Source: Yuukianura sp. NJ FZ-2021 (taxonomy: Eukaryota). From it: 64,000 nt of DNA. The translations under genes and the position numbers were made by a program. The notes under the pieces were generated by a model. It was not told the DNA's origin and searched no databases. It was given only the letters and a program-made list of their open reading frames with translations. The stretch is from contig CM102285.1 in NCBI GenBank assembly GCA_046563655.1, positions 11,098,001-11,162,000 of the forward strand. The letters run 5' to 3'. The stretch's first letter is position 1, and the number at the start of each line of letters is the position of its first letter. Of the stretch, positions 13,801-63,110 are shown one piece after another.

Positions 13801-16121
13801 TTGGACACGGATGATTTGCCAAAGAAAAAACTGCCTGCTCTCTACCGTGCTCCGACAGCAGAAATGATTGCCTACCTCGACTTCAGGTTGTTTGTTATTA
13901 CATCAAGGGAAAATATTTTTTGTGATATTGACCAAGCTGTTTTTTTTTTTGTTTTATGTAGCGTTTCTACGACTGGGATGCTCGCTGGTAAGTTGGACCG
14001 TGTTTTATTAACCGGAAAGTTACGACGGTACTGCAAATATACGATGTCTAACTTTTTTATGCTCATTATCAGGGATCAAAATGTCACATTCTGCTGTGAC
14101 ATCACTTTGTCGGTCAATGAAGTTGGCTTGTGAACTGTACCCTTCACGTCATGTCGCTCTCTGCTTGGATCCATACTGTGGACTTGGGTAAAAAAAGAAT
14201 ACTTTCCTAACATTTTTTTTAAACTTTTGATTCTCCATTTTCAGGTGGGAAGCTTTAAAGTTTATTATTTGTTTTTCTTTTACAGGTTTGCATTGTGGTG
14301 CCTCAGCAGGTGAGGAAATATTCAAAAGTTTACCTGATTTTGAATGGCCCAGAGTCCTATATGAACTTTCTTTTCTTTTTGCAGCGTGTACTCCGGACAT
14401 CATTCAATATTGATTCCCCCCTCAGAAGTTGAAGTGAACCCAGCTCTTTGGTTAAGTGCAGTGAGTCAGTACAAAGTGAGAGATACGTTCTGTTCTTACG
14501 GAGTCATGGAGCTCTGTACCAAGGGATTAGGAAGCTCTGTAAACCTTCTCAAACAAAGGAACGTCAATTTGGCTTGTGTCCGAACTTGCGTTGTGGTGGC
14601 TGAAGAAAGGCCGCGAATTGCTCTCTCCAATAGTTTCTCAAAACTGTTTTCTGCCCTTGGACTCTCGCCGCGTGCCGTTTCGACGTCTTTTGGATGTCGA
14701 GTCAATGTTGCCATTTGTTTGCAGGTAAGAACCAGCAAATAGGCGTTGGAAATCTGTTGAGGGAAAGTGGTCGAATGGTCAGAGTTTGTCACGCTGTGAG
14801 TAGGGTTGTGGGTTCGAGCCCTGAGGAGGGAGTGACAAGACTGCATTTTCCTGTCAGAAATGATGATCAAGTATACCGCCCCAGTCTGAATTCTATGACT
14901 GAGTGGTTGATTTGTCCCTGATCTGTATTTTTGGTACTTTTGTAGTAGATTTTCGTTTTTGGTGAGCACACATTCTAAATGTTATGCTGTTTTGCAGGGA
15001 GCGTCTAGTCCAGAACCATCCACTGTTTATGTGGATCTGCGAGCCCTCCGAAATGACCGTGTCACTTTGGTGGAGAGAGGTAGTCCACACAGTCTTTGCG
15101 TTATGGAGTCTGGAAAGCTTTTACCGGGCTGTAAAGGTAAATCCAGGTTTTCAATTTTTTTTTTTTGGAAATCAAAATTTGTAATTAATTTTTTTCGTAG
15201 TAATAATTGCCAACCCTGAGACGAAAGGACAATGCGGTGACTCTCATTTGGGAGAGGTACGGGTTTGCGGAGATTGAATTTGCTAATTTATGAATTATTG
15301 CAAAATTGTGTATATGTTTTAATCTGATATAGATTTGGATACAATCTCCTCATAATGCATCTGGATACTTTACGATTTTTGGAGATGAGAGTAGCTATGC
15401 GGATCACTTCAACTCACGCCTTGTGACCGGAAATACTGGAGAATTATATGCAAGGACAGGTTACCTGGGATTTTTACGAAGAACTGAAAACGTTCAAGCT
15501 GACGGAGGTATAATTCAACCAAATTCAATTCGCAAAATTCATAATAAAGATTGATGGACTGAATCCAATTTTTTATTTGTAGAGCTTCATGATGCTGTTT
15601 TTGTGGTGGGAGCCTTGGATGAAACGATCATGTTGCGAGGGATGCGCTATCATCCAATTGATGTAAGAGATGTAGAACATTATTACGAGAATTAGTCTCG
15701 TTTCTGGTAAGAAATGCAAGTTTTTTTTACCTCGCTTGATATTGTAGGTGGAGAATAGCATTCTTCGATGTCATAAGAAGATTTGTGAATGGTACAGTTT
15801 TTTCGATTCTCTCTTTCTTATTTCAAAGTTGGTGCAATGCTAACTCTCTGGTTTTGCTGTCTTTTCAGTGCTGTTTTTACATGGACAAACTTATTGGTAG
15901 TAGTAGTTGAATTAGAAGGAAACGAAAGTGAAGCCCTGGACGTTGTTCCGCTCGTTACAAATTGTGTCCTGGAAGACCATTTCCTTTTAGTTGGTGTAGT
16001 GTGCTGTGTCGATCCTGGAGTAGTTCCAATTAACTCACGCGGTGAAAAGCAGCGAATGCATCTTCGGGATGGATTTTTGGCAGATCAGTTGGATCCAATC
16101 TTTGTCGCGTACAACATGTAA
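1872..16121 (+). CDS. DIP2: Disco-interacting protein 2 (two AMP-binding/fatty acyl-AMP ligase-like domains); multi-exon, 5' end lies upstream of the window
   Basis: About 30 GT-AG exons join in frame (e.g. 1872-2112, 4248-4528, 5075-5200, 5813-6018, 6429-6555, 7001-7203, 8671-8905, 13153-13399, 14385-14724, 15869-16121). Recognisable DIP2 peptides: QPPDVT, RWKVSAKIQQLLNTLKRPKRRPL, GLPRNLEAAVQRYG, DRVALVYPNNDP, C-terminal PINSRGEKQRMHLRDGFLADQLDPIFVAYNM*. Confidence 0.96.
10033..10623 (+). mobile_element. Non-autonomous Helentron-associated element (HINE/DINE-1-like) in a DIP2 intron
   Basis: 5' hairpin AAGTAGC-GAA-GCTACTT (10039-10055); (CTGT)n microsatellite at ~10070-10085; 3' subterminal inverted copy CTTCGCTACTT (10585-10595) followed by stem-loop CGGTT-TAC-AACCG (10604-10616); T-rich flanks and no TSD; internal tandem repeats. 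Ends are approximate. Confidence 0.75.
10404..10528. repeat. 25-bp minisatellite (5 units, GAGAAACCCATCTCCRYTCCCCCGG) inside the HINE-like element
   Basis: Units start at 10404, 10429, 10454, 10479 and 10504 and diverge progressively. A ~70-bp block is also duplicated with a 127-bp period (10211 and 10338). Confidence 0.9.
14761..14832 (+). promoter_or_regulatory. Degenerate tRNA-like RNA polymerase III internal promoter (A box + B box) immediately upstream of the snoRNA
   Basis: A box TGGTCGAATGG at 14768-14778 and B box GGTTCGAGCCC at 14811-14821, with tRNA-like spacing counting from G14761. The acceptor stem does not pair, so this is not a functional tRNA. Confidence 0.7.
14855..14925 (+). 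ncRNA. SNORD31: Box C/D snoRNA of the U31/SNORD31 (yeast snR67) family, guiding 2'-O-methylation of the LSU rRNA P-loop G (E. coli G2251 equivalent)
   Basis: Terminal stem CAGA/TCTG; C box ATGATGA 14860-14866; guide TACCGCCCCAGT 14874-14885, complementary to conserved 28S ACUGGGGCGGUA; D' box CTGA 14886-14889; C'-like ATGACTGA 14895-14902; D box CTGA 14918-14921. The D'+5 rule lands on the second G of UGGGG. Confidence 0.88.
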
Positions 16122-51821: not shown

Positions 51822-54800
51822 TCACTTTTTCTTTGCATCTTTCAGCCCTGCTCCTGCATTGAATTTGAAGAATATGATATCGCCATCTTCAACCACATAG
51901 GACTTCCCCTGTTGTCGGTATTTTCCGGCAGCCTAAAACAATGGAGAAAGTTACCACCAGAGAGCTCCCACTACACGAAATTCACAAAGCGAGCACAAGA
52001 TCATTCAACGATTCAACCCTATGCATCATCCCCTCAAATCCAACAAAAATTCAATCATCTTCATCATGCTTCCGTCATTCACCAAACCAAATTCAAAACA
52101 TCAACAAAAGACAAGCAAATCGATACTCCCACCTTGATACACTTTCTAAATCCAGTCATTCAAAAATTTTAACCAAATTTTTGTTTTTAAAAATTCTCAG
52201 CTTCTAGTAGCAAGTCACCTAGTAGCAAAGCAAACACGGATACAATGCAGAGTTAATCTAAATCAAACTACAATTTCTAGCTTATCATCCCTTGTGTAAG
52301 TTTCAAACGTCAAATTGCAAATTCACTCCATCACACAATCAGTTAATAAAAATTTGCAATGCGTCACTAAAACCACTTACTTTGCAACCTGCTTCTGAAC
52401 CTTCCTCTTTGAAATCTTCAAATTTCATAACTTCGGCCATAATGAAGCCTTTTTCAAAATCTGTATGAATTCGTCCAGCAGCTTGCGGTGCCTTGGCTCC
52501 TTTCTTCAAAACCAGAAACAAAATTTCATCAATTTCACAATTTAAAAGCATCATCCTAACGCCAATTCGAAATCATAACTTTCAAACAACATTCGAACAG
52601 TTCATAGTTCACAACTGAGACAGTAACAAGAACAGGGACTAGAGAAAAGGACAGGATACTTGTGTCATTTCAAACCGATCAAAGTAGTAGGGAAGAATTC
52701 GAAACTTAACATTCAGAAAAAATTTAACTGCTAAATTTTGAAAATCATCTCAGCGGCGTTCAATCGATAACCACTCACCTTACAATTAAAGATTTGCCTG
52801 CGTAACCTATGATTTCCCTCTTTGAATTCCCTAATATTTTATTCAAAAACAATTTTTAAAAGAAAACACAATGACCCCGCCCATCCCTCACCGAAACAGA
52901 TTCTTACTCAACTTTTTTTTAAAGTTACAACTACTGCGGAAGGTATGTTATTACAAGATTATTCCGTTGATTCCTCTGACTAATCGTTTAATTGGAAATT
53001 ATACTCATTCCTCTCTCTTCTGATTTCAATGACTACAATTAAATTCAAAAAACACTACAACAGTAAACCTCTTGCTCTTTTTTTCAAAAACTTTCTCGAT
53101 TCCTGTCATTAGTTCAAATTGGTTATGGACTCCAACCCTTCAATCTGTGTGAATCAGTCCAGACAGAACAAAAAAAGCAACAAATAAAACAGAAAGCCAA
53201 AACATATTCCAACTTTTTCGAAAACTACAACAATTGTTTCAGATCCGGAATAGATAACCTGAATAATTTTTGTTCAGGGGCTATGAAGGGCCCTTCCCTT
53301 GACCCCTGACCCCTTACAACATGCTACAAACGTGGCGCCTTCGAACATGTTACAACCACAATCAAAAATTATTTTTTGCTCCCTTTACAATTCCGTCGGA
53401 ATCATTATAGGCATCCGGATTAAATTGGAGCAATTTTTCAATTGAAATTCGGAATTTTGTAATTTTTTTCACCCCAAGTTAAGGATCAGGAAGGGTAGAA
53501 AGGGAGAAAGCCAACTCTCATTTTTCAGTTTAAAAATTAATCAAAAAATTTAAAAAAAAAAAAAAAAAACACCATACTTTTCAAAAATTCGGTTATTCCG
53601 AGAAGGCGAAAGCGTTTGCTTACCTGAACTGTCCAGCATTTGACTTCATCAGGTCCAGCCGTAAAAAAGTATTGAAGCTGAAGAGCTTTGTATCCATTTG
53701 TGATAATCTTGTCCAAAGCACTGCAAAAACAACAAAAAGTCATTTTATCAATTAACAATTAACGTAAATTAACAATTTAATTAACCACAATTTAGTCACT
53801 AACTTGAGATAAAATTAAAATTTGCACTGTTTAAAATTTTTGTGTTGCATTTTCATTAAATTCCCTTTTGCCCCTCAAACGGCCGAATTTTTTTGCTTTC
53901 ACCGTCTTGTTTTTGAGAAACATGGGATAATCAAAGTCTACAATTCTGTTAGACGTTTTTTTTGTTTTAAAACAGGGAGGTACCCTTGTCTACATAATTA
54001 GCACTACGGAAGATCCCTGTTCTCCAACCGTATGCCTGCCCATGGCCCTTTGATCTTAATCTGAAAGTAATTCAAAGTGTTCATGACCAAGTGCTATAAA
54101 AGCCTAATTCTCAACAAAGGTACTCAAAAATATCAAATTAAAAACAAGATCCAGCAACATAGTGAAATGCCCCTTGAAGCGAAACCATTATTTTTTCTCC
54201 CAAAAAAAATTTCATCTCCATATCAAATCTGTAATAGCCACTTCCATTTTAGTACCCGGATTTTCGGATAATTTACAAAAATTAATGTAAAAACGGAATT
54301 ACGTAACTCCAGCCCTTATTCCAAATTCAAAACAGACCTTAACAGCAGCTAAAATTCAAGGTGTTCAGAGATGTCCATAAAAAATTCAAAGATCAATGCT
54401 CTGGAAACTAATTTCTAGCCTCCAGTACTTCAAAAAAGCAACTTAATTTAAAAAGTACTAATTTCAAAAACGAAATTACTAAGGAGGTTCTTGTTATAAT
54501 TTGCAGCTTTGAACACTGAACAGTAATTGGACTCATAACATTCCGATTGATTCATCTTGTGCCAAAAAAAAATGTGTTCTTTTATGAATGAAATCTCCGG
54601 CCGCTGCAAATTTTGCTTTTAGTACTTCGGATTTTACCAGAAGGTAAGGAATTCAAAGTTGAAAAGAAAAAACAACAGCCATTCTTCTGTGTAAAATTCG
54701 ATAACAGGTCGAAATTGTCAATTATTATTTCAAATCATTTTCTTAAATTGCACTTCTTGAAATTGAACTTCAAATCACATCTTCCCCTCAAAATAAGAAG

Positions 54801-57800
54801 ATCCAAAGCCACAATTAAACGAGTAGAATAAAATCCATTAAAACCCAGTCCAACCCCAAACCAACCTCTAAATTTCATCTGTGGCAAAGGAACTAACTAA
54901 CTACTTTTTGCCTTAGTTCCAAACCTCCTCGAACGTTTTGAAAGTTCAAGATTGAAGTGATTCCAAGTCCAAAATTACATGTCATCATCCAGTTTAATAT
55001 CAAAGTCTGAGCTTTTCTCAAACCCATGTCTCATCCCTATAATTTTGCACCACCACTTCTTTATATTCCCTTCCTTAATTCACTCATTCCTACCAGAGAA
55101 GTTCAATCTTACCGAAAATCGACACTGAATTGAGGCCTAGAGCCTCGTAGTCAAAATTCCAAGCGTTAATTTTTAAAAATCACTTTGGGTGGTTTCCTTC
55201 CAAAATGAGTTTCTCTCAAAATTAACAATCCAATTTCAAAGTTCACATTCACAGTTCCTTTGAAAAACATTAAGAAAACCGGCAGCTTTGAAACAATTTT
55301 CTTAATTTTAATGAAGGACAAGGGAAAATGGGACTCTAACAATTGTATCTGGACTGGAACGGAGTGAATTCCTTTTGAAACCAAGACATGAATACAAAAT
55401 TACAAAACTAAAACAAAAAAAAGCGGTTTGTAAAAACTACTATAAAAACTAGTACTAAAAAGGTACTAGAATAATTTAAAAAGTCTGTTACTTATATAAG
55501 AAAGTTTTAAAAAAAAAGTCGCATAGAGACAGAAAATTCATTCGCTCATTTTCTAAATAAATCGTAAAATTTTTGGCTTTTGACTTTTTAACAACAAAAT
55601 TTCGATCGTCCGTATTTTGTTTCATTTTAGAGTCATTTGGATAAAAAAGACATTTAGGCTAGACTCAGTTTTTTTTAATACGTTAGATCAGGTCAGAAAA
55701 AGTTTCCCCCTCGCACCACACCGTTAGCTTTACTTTTCCAAAACAAAAGTGAAATCTATTTTCTGAAATATACACGAAATTTCAAAAATAAGCACAAAAC
55801 CCACAAAGTTCTATTCCGAAAAGTCCGAATTTCAGAGAAAAACAAAAGTTTGAACATTACTGATAAGCGATTTTGGGCTCATTTCCGTTAGCACGAAACT
55901 GCAACAGTAAGTGCCAGGAATGGGACATAACGCACACGCTCCAAACTCATTGGTTTCGTTATTATGAAAGTTAAGGAAAATGAAAACATTGCTTCTCTCC
56001 CTCAAATGACTTTGGAAACTAATCGTGTTGTAGGTTTTTGTTATAGACTTAAGGCCGAATCATGCCAAAATGCCAAATCCGTCGTCACTCGTCGTTAGAA
56101 ATGGATTGAATTACAGTCTTTCATTTTCTTACGACTTCCTTTCACTCAACTTTCTCTCCGTTTCCTTTTCCTTTCTTTCCCATTTTCTGTACCATATAAT
56201 TAAACCAATTTCTAGCCAACGAGAGGGGCTTGGAATTGTTTTTGACAGGGACAGAACAAGAGGTCTACTTTGTCCCCTTGTCACAGTCGGATCTTAGAAC
56301 ATTGTCACGAGCTCTTAACTTAATATTATATTTAAATTATACAAACTAGAAATGTTGTCGTGTTTCAAAAAACATCCAATTCGATTGTCTCAGAACTGGA
56401 TGATTTTGAGGCATTAATGAATTCCCAAATTATTGAATTTTAGTAAATTACCTCGTTCCTCCAATTTCCTTCAAGTAGGCTGCTTTCTCATCGTCTGGCA
56501 TGTCAGCCAATTTAGCCTCCAAAACTCCCGACATTGGAATCAACAGTGCTCCAGGGTCGTTCTTGTCAATCCATTCTTTCAACTTAGGCAACCTATTTAC
56601 AACAAAAATTAATATAAATTAAGATATTCATAAATGAAATCTGTTGAATATTAAAAAAAAACTTTGTGCGTTGGAAAGAAAACATAGAAAGAATCCATTA
56701 CAGTTCGCACGTCGGTAAAAAAGAAATGGGTAATTGAAAACGCAGTTGGCACTTGACACACGAATTCAAACGATTTCTAATTTTTCAGTAATTTTGAACT
56801 GAAAAACTTGATTACTTGTATCTGTCACATCGAGCTGAAGTGTAACTTTTCAGCAGTTTTTTAACATCATTTCTGCTAAACGGCACTAATGTTGTTCTAA
56901 AACAAAACGTAGGTCTCATTGGTTCTAAAGTTTGACATGCGCTTTCGAGTTTGTACGTAAGAACGCAGATTGATGCATTTTCTCTTGACCTTTGACATGC
57001 TTCCTTCAAAACATTAAATACTTTTCTCAAAAGTAAATGAAAAAAGTCTGTTTGCGTTTCACTGTTTGTTGATTTGTTCAAGAAATCGTTTGAAGAGCAC
57101 CGTTCGCGTTCCTAAAACCTTTTGTTTTTGTCTTCAGCCAAGCGGATATTACACAGAGAAGCAACCTGACATGCAATCCAACATCATCGCAACCAGGCTG
57201 ACTCCGTTAAACCAATAATAATAAGTTCATTTCCAGTAGAAAGAGAACAAGGAAGAGCGTTTAAGGGCTTCAGAGAAATTTACGATAGCTTTGAAAAAGC
57301 AAGAAAGAAAAAATGAAAAGTGAGGGAAAAGATGCAAGCAATTTGTAAAACGTCGTCACGAAGTCAACACAAAAGAAATTAGTCTGCAGCGTACCATTTA
57401 TTCTTCTTCCTAATGTAGTCCTTCTCTGACAAATTGACCAAGTAGATGATCGGTTTAGCAGTGATGAGCAAGTGCTTGTTCAGATTTTCAATCTGTCAAA
57501 TTTCAAAAAGCAAAATGCAATGAAAACGAATCAAATTCACATCAATTTAGGAATTTTCAAAGTTCTGACTCACCTCAGTCGAATTCCAATCAACCATACG
57601 AATCAGCTTCTTGTCATCAACGAGGTTATGTTTTGCCTTGAGAAGAGTATCCTGAAATCACACAATTTAGAAATGTCAACATTTACAAACGTCAAAATTT
57701 AGAAAAGTCAATCAGCACTAATTTTCTAATTCAAAAATAAAATATACCTACAAAAAAAGCGTAGGTTTTCAGAAACGGAAACTTTTCAGCCTATAAAACT

Positions 57801-60800
57801 AAACGCTGCGGAGAATCTCATCCTCATTTGTCACTCAACCTGTCAATTACTTTTGTAATTAAACCACTTGCGCGGCCCAACTTATAATTAAGTTACAAAG
57901 TCCATTGTGATTATCCGTACTTTCCGGAAAGCCAGTAGCCACTTCGGTTAGCCTCAAGTGATCCACTTTAAGTCTCCCATTAAAAATTAATACTAACTCT
58001 CTCCATTTTGTCATTAAAAGATCCCATCACCTCCTTAGTCAGTATTAACTTGAGGTCGATTATCATCCTTTGCCTTCCCAGTGCTCACCCCTTCTCCGTA
58101 AACCATGCAATTTGAAAGACTCCTCACGAAGAACGACACACGGCATGCCTCGCAGATATTATTAAGTTTAACTCTGACTACCGTCTGACGCTCATACAAT
58201 TCTATTTATTCTGTACATGTAGTCATGCAATCCGAACGAATTTCAAAGAAACGAAACATTAACACAAACATTTCCTTTTCCAGTAGTATCATTCCGACTC
58301 CGGCTCCAACAACCTTGTTCTTCCCATTCACTCGTCATTTTACCAACATTAAACAGGAAATGACCAAAAACAAAAACTAGTTTCGACAATAATCTTTCTC
58401 AGAACATAGAAAATTTTCATTTTGTAAAGCCCGGTAGCAACGACAAAATGTTCATGCTTTGCATGCAGTCCGATTTCTCAGGACTCTCGTCGTTAACGTT
58501 ACTACAGATACAAATCAATCAAAAATCGCTTTTGGATTTTAGATTGATCCGTTTTTTAAAAAAAATGGAACTACAAAGTAGAAAAGAAAGACGTTTGACA
58601 TCAAAAGTGTCGTTTTTGGCCAATAAAGAGGCCGTGCTTGGGAAAGTGGGCAGGGCAGGTTGTTGTTAAGAACCAAATCAGGGGGTTGAGCATGAGGATT
58701 TTACAAAAGAATTTAACATGGTAAAAACACTAGGGAAAACAAAAGCGTTCCAACCTATTCTTTTCGTTCTCCACCAACCAACCAAGAGAACAAGTCTCAA
58801 ATTAATTGATCAGCTACCTCCATCTTCTTCCAAAGCCCAGGAGCTAATCATATCCTGTCAAGACTTTACAAGAGGCACTTGACCACACAATTGTTACTTT
58901 TTAGGAAAAAAAAGTCTGAAAATGGAGTAAGTTCAAGTCACGGGGCTCAGAAATCCACGAGGCACAAACCCATAATTATAAATTCCAGTTTTAATAACTG
59001 CAATTCGCAAAACCACGGTTTCAAATTCCTCCCATTTTAAATCGCATGCATATTGTAATATGTTTACACGTTAAACAAAAACCATGAACCGTTCAAATAA
59101 AACTGTAGCACTAAAACAGTAAAAACATAACGCCTTATTCCAGCCCTTCCACTACAACAGCAAATAATAGTTTGATCACAAATAATGCAGTATTCGGGCG
59201 TTAACTCCATTAGCATGGAATAACCAAACCCTCTATTTGTTTTACGCTCAGTAAACATCAATTTCTAATTTGCAAAAACAAGAAGCGTTCAGAATGGGCA
59301 GAACAATCGCTGCCGGCTGGAGATGCTTCATTTTTACAAAAAAATTCTGAATGAGCTTGTCCACTGCCAGTTAAAACTTTCTTCTAAAAATCCATACAAA
59401 GAAAACCAAAACTTATGGACTCAAAAATTAAAAAAACGGATGGCTTTTTAGTGAGAAAACGAAATCTAAAATTTTGAAATCCGTCTTACGTATTCTGGTT
59501 TCAATTTCTTGTCTCCTCTGACAGCTCTTTCCAGTTTTTCAACATTTGCCAGTAGATATTCTTCATCTTTCAGTCGAAGTTCTTCACTAATCGTTTCCAA
59601 GTCTCTGATTGGATCAACTTCACCGTCGACATGAATTACATCAGAATCATCAAAGGCACCTTGAACAGGGAAAAAAAAGTTGTAAGAATTTTGTTCATAA
59701 ACTAAAAACTACTTTAAAATGTTCCCAGCATCTTTTCCTATCAACAAACCACTAAAAACGTACATTTCAAAAATTCATGACATTCTAGGACAGCTAACAA
59801 AAACGAGTCAACAGACGCTTAAAATTTAAACCCGAAGCTTCAAAACTCGAAAGTTTCAGTTTAGTCGAAATTATTGAATGTCGTTCCTAGCTTGTACCCA
59901 ATAATTATCTCTTAAACTGAAAACTCTTGAAATCTTAACGACAAGAGACAATGGAAAAGATGAGCTATAAAACAATGGAAAATATTAGCATACGGCTCCA
60001 ATGGACTATCAAATAACTCCTGGCAGACCGACCATCAACAAAAAAGCTTGCGAAAAATTCGACACTACAAAAACGCTTGCGAAAAATTCGACACTTCCCA
60101 AGTGTCTAACACCTTTGGTGCCCATAACTCTTCAACTTTAATTAGTCTAAGCGCCTTGCTCAACGCTTAAAACCTCTTCAAACTTGCATTCCTTATGTAA
60201 TTTTTAATAGAGTACTGAGACATAAAATGTGACGAAAGTTGAGGAACAAAGCCTCAAGTGAAGGAAATCAATCTTTGAAAGCGAAAGTTTGATGAGGTAC
60301 TTTCAAGTCATCGGGCCCTTAGAACCTCTTTACGAGTGATTTAAGGGCCCTCAGACGCTCAAGACGTTTTTAATGAGTCTCCGGCACCGTTCCGTTGTTT
60401 TCTAATGTTTTCAAATCCGTCGTCTGCTTCAGCAATCTTTAAGAGTACAACAGGTACTTGCCATATTAAGCTAAATTTCTTCCAATCCAAAATAAATATC
60501 GCATAATAACAGAAAAACTGTTGAGAGAACAATAGAAACACTCCGATCATCATCATTATCATCATTAGACCTAATCATCCCCAACCTTAACCAATAACCT
60601 ATTTCTTATATCCTGCCATCCGGCAGTACTTTCAACTCCTCTTTCCAGGAATCCAGTACTTAAAAGGCTTGAGTCGTGCAGTAGACAGTACTCTGAGACC
60701 ATACTGTACAACTTAAACCGGAGCCGTTTCGTTCGACTCTCGTGGCCTCTAATGATCTTCATTAATTTCCCTTTGACCTCTTTATGGTTTCCAGCAAACC

Positions 60801-63110
60801 TAGCCAAACTCCGGACGAATGCCTTCCATCGGCACGTAATTATATGTCTTCCACAACCACAAGTTTGAAGTTTCCCTTATTTTTAACTCCCTCTGCTCTC
60901 AAAAATCTGAAATTACCTCATCAAAAGAAGATCTAACACTCAAAAAAAAACTTGAAGGAATGAAGTACTGTTTGGAGGGGTTAGTTTTAAGTTCATCAAC
61001 TTACGGCAAACATGGAATATGGCATCACATGCCTTGATGTGAGACAAAAACGCGTTGCCTAGACCTTGGCCAGCCGAAGCTCCTTTGACAAGTCCAGCGA
61101 TGTCCACCACGTTCAAATAAGCCGGAACTTTACTGAAAAATCATGAAAAAAACAACTTTAGAATTCAGAATGGATCCAAAACTTGATTTGTATTTGAATT
61201 CGTTGGTAAATGATTGTCAATCCTTTCCACTTCCTGAGTGTAGCGATCATGCAATCATCTACCAAAACAATCTCATTTAAATTTGTGAATTATTCGTCGA
61301 TTAATGCTTAAGGGTTCCTAGTTTTCGTTATAAATGTTCATATAAAAACGAATCGTGATCACGGCAGTCATAAGAAAACAAATGTGAACTTCAATACACA
61401 TATCTCCAACTATTGTTCTCTCTCTTGTGCGCGGCCAGCCATAGTTGTATTTTTTTAGAATTATGACACGCAATCTTCCGTGTCAAAAAATTACTTTCAT
61501 TGTTATTCCGACTGAACGAAAGTATAAAAAATTCTTCCTTTGAAGGTTTTCTTGCCTGACCAAATCGAATCCAATTTCTTTCAGAATTAACAACAAAATC
61601 GTTCAAGTTGTAAGAAAGAACAAAATGTTTTGCAAATTCTGAAAAGAAAATTAATTCTCAACTTTACACTTAATTCCTGTATGAAATTGAAATCGTTCAC
61701 TCTTTTTTTCTATTTTGTATTGCTGAAAATGCGGAAATAATTTTTTGAAATTTTTGTTTGGCTCTGAATAAAATCATCATCAAAACAAAGTTTCAAATCG
61801 CATGATCAATGCCCATACGCATGTTTTAAAAGAAACATTTTCCAGAGGAAGATCAACGATAAAATTGAACGTAAACCGGGAGGAGTTAAAGCTCCTGAGT
61901 TTTTTGTAACAACTTATCCAGAGCCAGCACCATTTTCCATTTTTTCCCCTTTGCCACCATGTTGATTTCATCCATTCAAGTGATCATGGAATCCACAATC
62001 AAATAAAAACCAGTTTTATAAGGCATCGCACCGAGCAAAGCAACCATTGCAATCCGTAGTAGATACTGTAGCATATAAAACAACAACGCGCTTGGACTTG
62101 ACTTGAGATTACTGCTTACTACCGGGTTGGTATAATTAATACCCGACTAAGATTCGAAAATGTTCTTATTTCAATTAAAAACTCACCTAGCTGGTTTGTG
62201 GTATTCGCACAAATAGTCGAACCTTGAATCCGGCACGGCTACCCTACGTAAAATACAATTGTTTCATTAAAATAGATAATTCGTAACAAGAATTGAGCAT
62301 GTTCTAGGATATCACCATTATCCTACTACAAAGAAGCAAGCAAATGCAAGGAAACAGTGTTTGGCAAGTTAAAAACGTGGAACATTTGTTAGGTATGTAA
62401 ACACATCAATACCGCGGGGTGTTAAGTAGTAAAATGCAAGCACTTTTGAAATTGAATAAATTGATAATTGAATAAAAGACTTATTTTCATTCGGATCGAT
62501 GGTACAGAAGGGGAAGTTTTCAGCCGGAATTGCACTTTTCGTCAAAACGTTGAAGAACGTAGATTTACCCACATTTGGTAGACCAACTGAAATCAAATTA
62601 AAAGATGATGACATTAGAATACGGCAGTTTGACAGCATTGTAGTTGATTCTACGGTTTATACTACTGCATACTGTCTGACTTCAAATAACTATACATCGC
62701 AGGCAGGTTCCGTTTCCATTTAACGGTGATTCTTTAACGATCCACTATATCTTCGACGAAGACGAAAGAATAATAATTGTATACTTACCTTACTAAAAAT
62801 TAACTCTATGTCTAACATTGCTTGACGTAATCTCTAAAGTTTTAAAAGCAATAGGATGTACGGCACTTCCACGAGTATCGATTTCTTTCCGAGCCGATTA
62901 CTGTAGAATCGCCAACGTGAAAGGGATCATGACTATTGACACCAAGTGACACCAATGTCCCATCGCTTGATTGATTAATTCACGCTTACAAGAGTAACGA
63001 ACGATGTAATAACGATTTACTAACAACTTACCAACTCCAATTTTGAGATTAGTTCCTATCCTTCCAATCAATGGTTTGGGTTCGACGACTTCCGGCTTCT
63101 TTGGAGGCAT
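51822..63110 (-). CDS. OLA1: Obg-like ATPase 1 (YchF family)
   Basis: Eleven exons: 63110-63032, 62586-62485, 62247-62187, 61132-61005, 59659-59490, 57651-57574, 57492-57395, 56592-56452, 53720-53624, 52503-52381, 51932-51822. Motifs [75 protein letters not shown]. Confidence 0.97.

Follow-up and report, generated by a model that had tools for sequence, protein, structure and literature searches.

A probable U2-type AT-AC intron in the OLA1 gene of Yuukianura sp., overlapped by an in-frame GT-AG pair that misleads gene models

The second intron of the gene for Obg-like ATPase 1 (OLA1), found in the window analysed here (the whole stretch of 64,000 nucleotides from Yuukianura sp. NJ FZ-2021), is with a probability of about 0.85 a U2-type, that is major-spliceosome-like, AT-AC intron, whose AT-AC junction would make the functional mRNA encoding DPNESRVAVPD. 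Displaced from its ends by 4 nt lies an in-frame GT-AG pair that would put NK in place of SR; the likeliest source of this NK form is faulty gene prediction, and at most it would be a minor product. An intron has stood at this position for a long time; some animal lineages have a GT-AG intron there, and arthropods broadly an AT-AC intron.

The OLA1 exons were located from 63110 to 51822 by tblastn with P0004, a 397-aa homologue derived from mRNA; the ATG is at 63110, and the window carries the 5' part of the gene on its minus strand. Assembled with the AT-AC intron 2, the gene model is a 1188-nt ORF of 395 aa with a single terminal stop, and 358 of these 395 residues are identical to P0004. 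P0004 itself has domains PF01926, PF02421 and PF06071 and matches human OLA1 (PDB 2OHF, deposited under the title 'GTP-binding protein 9') with an E value of 4e-187, and homologues bear the name Obg-like ATPase 1 together with domains PF01926 and PF06071. Full-length similarity, a P-loop G-domain and a C-terminal YchF domain place the gene in the OLA1/YchF family. The best match to the variable exon 5 in the protein collection was 84% identical, too distant for a transcript of this species. Exon 1 terminates at G/GTAAGT, and the nine introns other than intron 2 are GT-AG without exception, with donors GTAAGT (three times), GTGAGT (twice), GTAAGA, GTACGC, GTAATT and GTAAGC, all nine of which have a purine at +3. 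The features of the gene and of intron 2 are as follows.

51822..63110, minus strand: OLA1 coding region, 11 coding exons, located by tblastn with P0004
62485..62586, minus strand: exon 2, ending ATC GAT CCG AAT GAA A (last letter, first base of the Ser codon)
62248..62484, minus strand: intron 2, AT-AC, 237 nt, phase 1, splitting the Ser codon A/GT
62479..62484, minus strand: 5' splice site ATAAGT, which differs from the U2-type consensus GTAAGT by an A at +1
62479..62480, minus strand: alternative donor GT (GTCTTT), coinciding with bases +5/+6 of ATAAGT
62266..62272, minus strand: candidate branch region TTTTAAT, with a putative branch A roughly 19-20 nt from the 3' end of the intron
62248..62249, minus strand: 3' terminal dinucleotide AC, as read in the sequence
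62244..62245, minus strand: alternative acceptor AG, within the Arg codon AGG
62187..62247, minus strand: exon 3, beginning GT AGG GTA GCC GTG CCG GAT (RVAVPD) and ending AG

On the minus strand, the last base of exon 2 (62485) is followed by ATAAGTCTTT (62484-62475), the 3' end of the intron reads ...TTGTATTTTAC with the AC at 62249-62248, and exon 3, preceded by ...TATTTTAC, opens with GTAGGGTAGCC. A script that enumerated the in-frame, stop-free joins for six terminal pairs (GT-AG, GC-AG, AT-AC, AT-AG, GT-AC and AT-AA) at the intron 2 interval returned 36. The join of AT62484 to AC62248, which removes 237 nt, yields DPNESRVAVPD and is the sole one of the 36 to give ESRV. Shifting both sites by 4 nt, from GT62480 to AG62244, likewise removes 237 nt and yields DPNENKVAVPD. 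Length is kept by these two joins only, and two further GT-AG joins remove conserved residues. The presence of a canonical, in-frame GT-AG pair counts against the AT-AC reading, but the pair can be understood as a by-product, since ATAAGT always holds a GT at +5/+6 and the Arg codon here, being AGG, supplies the overlapping acceptor. As a donor, GTCTTT has C, T and T at +3, +4 and +5, all three off consensus. The Arg that follows the junction is conserved from human OLA1 (ESRV) to rice OLA1 (EARV; peptide DPNEARVYVPD in 5EE0). Our reading coincides with the initial annotation, whose intron coordinates and two joins were exact to the base, whose description of GTCTTT as weak is borne out by its mismatches to the consensus at +3, +4 and +5, and whose human peptide, DPNESRVPVPD, is real according to PDB 2OHF.

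Introns with AT-AC termini are most often of the U12 type, in which the donor is ATATCCTT and the branch site, TCCTTAAC, lies about 10-15 nt from the 3' end. The U12 donor ATATCCTT is absent from intron 2, where the actual donor is ATAAGTCTTT, and no TCCTTAAC motif occurs in the intron. The initial annotation had likewise noted that both signals were missing and that ATAAGT equals the U2 donor consensus except at +1, which holds in the window and in every AT-class relative described below. Within the gene itself, ATAAGT is the commonest donor (GTAAGT, three of nine) with A replacing G at +1. The candidate branch region TTTTAAT fits a loose YTRAY and does not match the U12 consensus. Two features count against the U2-type AT-AC reading: the pyrimidine tract is weak, with nine of the 18 positions from -20 to -3 being pyrimidines as counted by eye (the fraction in relatives ranges from 0.56 to 1.00), and the exon carries A at -1, which would limit pairing with U1 to five contiguous base pairs. 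An Rfam scan of the whole window gave no match in or near intron 2, so that a hosted snoRNA does not account for the conservation of the intron.

How the junction is read in relatives was examined first in proteins. The junction motif is present in 71 of the 120 longer homologues listed, as ESRV in 51 and as ENKV in nine. We sorted 106 proteins, taken from these homologues and from the matches to an L006 exon described below, by origin into 44 from contigs too short to contain introns, which were therefore taken as mRNA assemblies (Logan or JGI), 47 NCBI genome-annotation models, whose scaffolds are all longer than 50 kb, and 15 of uncertain origin. The 44 mRNA-like contigs read ESR in 40 cases (39 by regular expression and P0021, ESRV, by eye), ENR in two, EAR in two and ENK in none, a count to be taken with the proviso that contig assemblies lose rare variants and would leave a minor isoform invisible. 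The 47 genome models comprise 21 with ESR, one with ENR, ten with ENK, four with ENN and 11 that lack the junction peptide; ENK does not occur among the 15 proteins of uncertain origin. The ENK models are those of Iphiclides, Orchesella, Rhodnius, Eretmocerus, Parthenolecanium, Pediculus, Nesidiocoris, Anthonomus, Diabrotica undecimpunctata and Frankliniella, the last of which runs straight through the intron; as proteins, the ten are nine with ENKV plus P0267, a read-through of the intron. The models that lack the junction peptide fail in other ways: among these 11, those of Folsomia (P0008) and Photinus (P0119) omit part of exon 2, and those of Hermetia (P0054), Zophobas (P0121) and Uroleucon (P0099), as well as P0065, start or join at RRV/SRV, which is a read-through of the 3' end of the intron. 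NK, exactly the reading expected from the 4-nt shift, thus occurs among these proteins in predicted ones only. The suggestion in the initial annotation that pipelines would miscall the intron as the shifted GT-AG is thereby supported, ENK standing in ten of 47 NCBI models and in none of the 44 mRNA-like contigs.

A further view of the donor comes from ORFs that read through it. The stop-to-stop ORF of 95 aa that encloses exon 2 served as query, and we analysed the best 120 short proteins of 1333 matches, mostly ORFs called on genomic contigs. In 94 of the 120 (92 by pattern, P0184 and P0203 by eye), ENK is followed by Y, S, C or F, the translation expected of A/ATAAGT with T at +6. Three fragments (P0150, P0180 and P0230) have ESK, corresponding to A/GTAAGT, a canonical donor at the same spot; two, both from Anopheles (P0186 and P0239), have ESRY; and the remaining 21 are spliced or otherwise different and show no donor read-through. 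The ENK fragments include representatives of Diptera (Hermetia), Coleoptera (Holotrichia, Cryptolaemus), Lepidoptera (Arctia) and Hymenoptera (Trichogramma), as well as the crab Portunus. Judged from these translations, the ATAAGT donor occurs across insects and in at least one crustacean.

Metagenome DNA was scanned with a degenerate C-T-I-D-P-N-E pattern followed by A and an open donor (A/G at +1, C/T at +2, A at +3, A/T at +4, +5/+6 free), which gave 68 loci. An intron lies at the same position as OLA1 intron 2 in 67 of them; the remaining locus (L048) reads E-S-K-V-P-V-P-D and is spliced or intronless. The donor is AT in 39 loci, and in all 39 it is ATAAGT. GT donors at the same phase-1 site account for 28 loci, with GTATGA in 17, GTAAGT in five, GTAAGA in four, and GTATGC and GTAAGG in one each. 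ATATCC was found in none of the 39 AT-class loci (nor in any of the 68), though the scan pattern permitted ATAT, and N-K directly before V-x-V-P-D was likewise found in none of the 68, although the pattern would have caught such transcripts. The recurrence of ATAAGT at the same codon position in 39 of 68 loci and 94 of 120 ORF fragments is far beyond chance. Both a chance in-frame coincidence and a sequencing error at +1 are rejected, as ATAAGT...AC recurs in dozens of independent contigs.

Exon 3 could be found in 39 loci, the other 28 intron-bearing ones having long introns or short contigs. Among the 18 AT-donor loci so completed, the intron ends in AC in 14, in AA in four and in AG in none, and all 21 GT-donor loci end in AG and none in AC. 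After deduplication the locus counts are 13 AT-AC, four AT-AA and 17 GT-AG. The intron ends covary without exception, AT with AC or AA and GT with AG, in loci that share phylogeny, so that these counts do not represent independent events. The initial annotation had proposed aligning the orthologous intron across arthropods, and in our comparison the termini proved to be conserved (ATAAGT in 39 of 39 AT loci, AC in 14 of 18). Exon 3 of the 18 AT loci starts with GTAGG in eight, GCAGG in one and GTCGN in nine. Where it starts with GTCGN, Arg being encoded by CGN, the shifted GT-AG is impossible and AT-AC is the sole frame-keeping option; since half of the AT-class relatives are thus unable to make the shifted pair, the overlapping GT-AG cannot count as conserved. 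A U12-like branch motif is missing from the final 45 nt of all 18 introns, and several of them have a long pyrimidine tract, with a fraction of up to 1.00, and CTAAC/CTGAC boxes 23-28 nt upstream.

One relative provides a genome-mRNA pair. Locus L006, with donor ATAAGTCTTC and exon 3 start GTAGGGTAGC, has the same overlapping arrangement as the window, and its intron ends in AA. A search with one L006 exon retrieved P0244, a 396-aa protein from Logan contigs of at most 1372 nt and hence spliced, which matches L006 at 100% in every exon and whose junction reads DPNESRVAVPDD (ESRV). The assembled mRNA is thus SR in spite of the overlapping pair and of a 3' end other than AC. From the mRNA alone, AT-AA, AA-CA and AA-CC are equivalent at this junction; homology favours AT-AA as the probable one. 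The AA ending is found also in L023 and L032, and P0246, which is 90% identical to the L006 query exon and an exact match to exon 3 of L023, reads ESRV; the mRNA of the AT-AA clade still gives SR.

The alternative that survives best, though we consider it improbable, is that this species splices at either junction and that the shifted GT-AG gives an appreciable NK isoform, in effect an SR/NK switch beside switch I of the G-domain. Both pairs keep the frame and remove the same length, binding of U1 at ATAAGT could in principle permit cleavage at a nearby GT, and a minor isoform would escape contig assemblies. Two of the ten NCBI proteins with ENK are entries named as RefSeq isoforms, Rhodnius prolixus X2 and Anthonomus grandis X1, and these ten proteins count against the AT-AC reading. 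Against an appreciable isoform stand the absence of NK from the 44 mRNA-like contigs and from the position before V-x-V-P-D in the 68 scanned loci, the SR mRNA of L006 in spite of its equal overlap, the departures of GTCTTT from consensus, which set it apart from all nine other donors, and the half of AT-class relatives in which the alternative is impossible. The micro-switch that the initial annotation had entertained as an option accordingly found no support, NK being missing from the mRNA-like contigs and the L006/P0244 pair reading SR.

It is very unlikely that the GT-AG (NK) junction is the sole or main one here and the AT-AC reading coincidental. Such a junction would have canonical dinucleotides, NK would be a conservative change, and nine annotated relatives among the homologues listed carry ENKV. 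All nine, however, are genome predictions on scaffolds of at least 87 kb and none comes from an mRNA-like contig; the annotations moreover disagree within groups, Diabrotica virgifera having ESRV against ENKV in D. undecimpunctata, and UniRef entries of Panstrongylus having ESRV against ENKV in Rhodnius of the same group. The conservation of ATAAGT and AC as splice signals in relatives, the very weak GT donor and an Arg retained from rice to human also argue against it. Least credible is an AT-AC intron of the U12 (minor-spliceosome) type whose signals have degenerated, a reading which would accommodate TTTTAAT about 20 nt from the 3' end and the AT-AA termini of four relatives (AT-AA being the commonest non-canonical minor-intron terminus; PMC10639083) and which is rejected on donor and branch-site sequence, given ATAAGT rather than ATATCC(TT) here and in all 39 AT relatives of a scan that allowed ATAT, no CCTTAAC-like motif within 45 nt of the 3' end of any of the 18 AT introns, and the U2-type pyrimidine tracts and CTAAC/CTGAC boxes of several relatives.

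For the preferred reading, splicing of a U2-type AT-AC intron, we infer use of the major spliceosome and propose the following course. U1 would pair with AUAAGU at +2 to +6, and the branch site some 20 nt upstream of the 3' end, together with the short T-rich tract, would bring in U2. During the second step, A at +1 would pair non-canonically with the C at the last position, replacing the usual G-G pair, and this A-C pairing would lead to the choice of AC over the AG four bases downstream. A with C can substitute for G with G as the first-last pair of an intron, and a non-Watson-Crick first-last pair is said to have been found by Parker and Siliciano and by Wu and Krainer to be required in the second splicing step. 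A gene finder limited to GT-AG would instead take the overlapping pair and so write NK in place of SR. Sheth et al. 2006 (PMC1557818) and Lin et al. 2010 (PMC2831892) describe part of this splicing biology.

As a class, U2-type AT-AC introns are well recognised but rare. Across five genomes, Sheth et al. 2006 (PMC1557818) arrived at 24 of them, with 15 in human, six in mouse and three in Drosophila, and for which their criterion is a 5' splice site that agrees with the consensus except at +1. Examples of this 'AT-AC II' class are introns of the sodium-channel genes SCN4A and SCN5A (PMC1557818; PMC2831892) and an intron of TAF2 that is conserved from human to Drosophila (PMC1557818). OLA1 intron 2 resembles them in its AT...AC termini, in a donor that follows the U2 consensus with A at +1, G at +5 and T at +6, in lacking the U12 donor and branch site, and in the retention of its odd termini in orthologues over long distances. 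It differs in residing in another gene, in that its use of the major spliceosome is predicted from sequence, in that other animal lineages have GT-AG, and one clade AT-AA, at this site, and in the in-frame GT-AG pair that overlaps the real sites and misleads gene finders. With U12-type AT-AC introns it shares the termini and the occasional AT-AA variants, but it has neither the ATATCCTT donor nor, near its 3' end, the consensus branch site TCCTTAAC, and its relatives, unlike U12-type introns, possess pyrimidine tracts. Tandem sites such as NAGNAG acceptors offer a likeness in their closely spaced pairs and tiny in-frame change (here SR versus NK); in OLA1, unlike in NAGNAG, donor and acceptor must both shift by 4 nt, and no transcript of the second form turned up in relatives. 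Judged by sequence, OLA1 intron 2 has the characters of U2-type AT-AC introns and not those of U12-type ones, and appears to be a further member of the established rare class. In the literature searched, no AT-AC intron in OLA1 (Obg-like ATPase, CG1354, GTPBP9, YchF) was found, and OLA1 goes unmentioned in the main texts of two recent intron surveys; the intron may already stand in the supplements of these surveys or of Sheth et al. 2006, possibly as one of two unnamed fly cases.

Lin et al. 2010 (PMC2831892) proposed that U2-type AT-AC introns are 'trapped', since both ends must change together. The overlapping register may be more than an annotation trap: tentatively, and with doubt, we raise the idea that the 4-nt-shifted GT-AG is an evolutionary exit from this state. 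Since the frame survives a 4-nt shift of the two sites together, a lineage could adopt the GT that occupies +5/+6 along with the AG inside the Arg codon, passing through an NK intermediate, and a later change of ATAA to GTAG in the new exon end would restore SR. The two Anopheles fragments (P0186 and P0239) read DPNESR and then continue into the intron as Y...; ESR followed by Y implies that a canonical GT donor splits the Arg codon in phase 2, that is, in the shifted register, and suggests that some lineages may have left the AT-AC state by such a slide. If the slide reading is true, this species would produce NK mRNA at a low level, and OLA1, with its AT-AA clade, would offer a natural series of G..G, A..C, A..A and slid G..G for the rule by which the major spliceosome treats the first and last nucleotides of introns.

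The intron has a practical cost. It harms public gene models (ten ENK, four ENN and 11 junction-less among 47 NCBI proteins), and with each miscalled junction a conserved Arg beside the switch I region of the G-domain is replaced or lost; pipelines that permit just GT-AG and GC-AG will repeat the miscall in this genome. A site that is GT-AG, AT-AC or AT-AA by lineage, with strictly covarying ends, is at the same time a convenient natural test bed, and OLA1 intron 2 offers a clean, deeply conserved case of a rare intron class with a demonstrable annotation cost.

The OLA1 intron 2 site, at which the minus-strand AT-AC intron of the window lies between 62484 and 62248, was compared across metagenome loci that share the end of OLA1 exon 2 (L-numbers) and across OLA1 homologous proteins or fragments recovered by protein searches (P-numbers). 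In four of these loci (L006, L023, L032 and L039), all with the donor ATAAGT, the intron ends in AA, not AC. The mRNA-derived protein matching L006, P0244, retains the junction peptide ESRV. Together, the ATAAGT...AA ends of L006 and the ESRV of P0244 imply either an AT-AA intron whose donor is U2-like or a junction of the equivalent AA-CA or AA-CC form. In several relatives whose intron is of the AT-AC type (L011, L020, L041 and L056), the terminal AC has an AG 3-4 nt before it, the introns ending in ..CAGCAC|, ..CAGGCAC| or ..TAGACAC|.

The OLA1 junction is mis-built in the following public gene models, through skipping of part of exon 2, a start within the intron or translation of the intron:

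Public models with a mis-built OLA1 junction
P0008, Folsomia candida
P0119, Photinus pyralis
P0054, Hermetia
P0121, Zophobas
P0099, Uroleucon
P0267, Frankliniella

Four lepidopteran models of 1135-1737 aa (P0019, P0031, P0046 and P0065), in which OLA1 is fused with adenylate-kinase-like and other domains, are probably chimeric gene predictions.

Elsewhere, an Rfam scan of the whole window gave a single match:

14853-14927, plus strand, SNORD31 box C/D snoRNA (score 49.1 bits, gathering score 40, E 4e-08)

Fragments from Anopheles epiroticus and A. maculatus (P0186 and P0239) read ...DPNESR followed by non-conserved sequence starting with Y, a reading that would place a canonical GT donor 4 nt downstream of the AT-AC site, splitting the Arg codon in phase 2. 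This may be a case of intron sliding. In other lineages, represented by P0150, P0180, P0230 and 28 loci with a GT donor (for example L015, L021 and L033), a canonical donor, A|GTAAGT or GTATGA, is paired with an AG acceptor at the same OLA1 intron position. It follows that one or more changes between GT-AG and AT-AC have taken place at this site.
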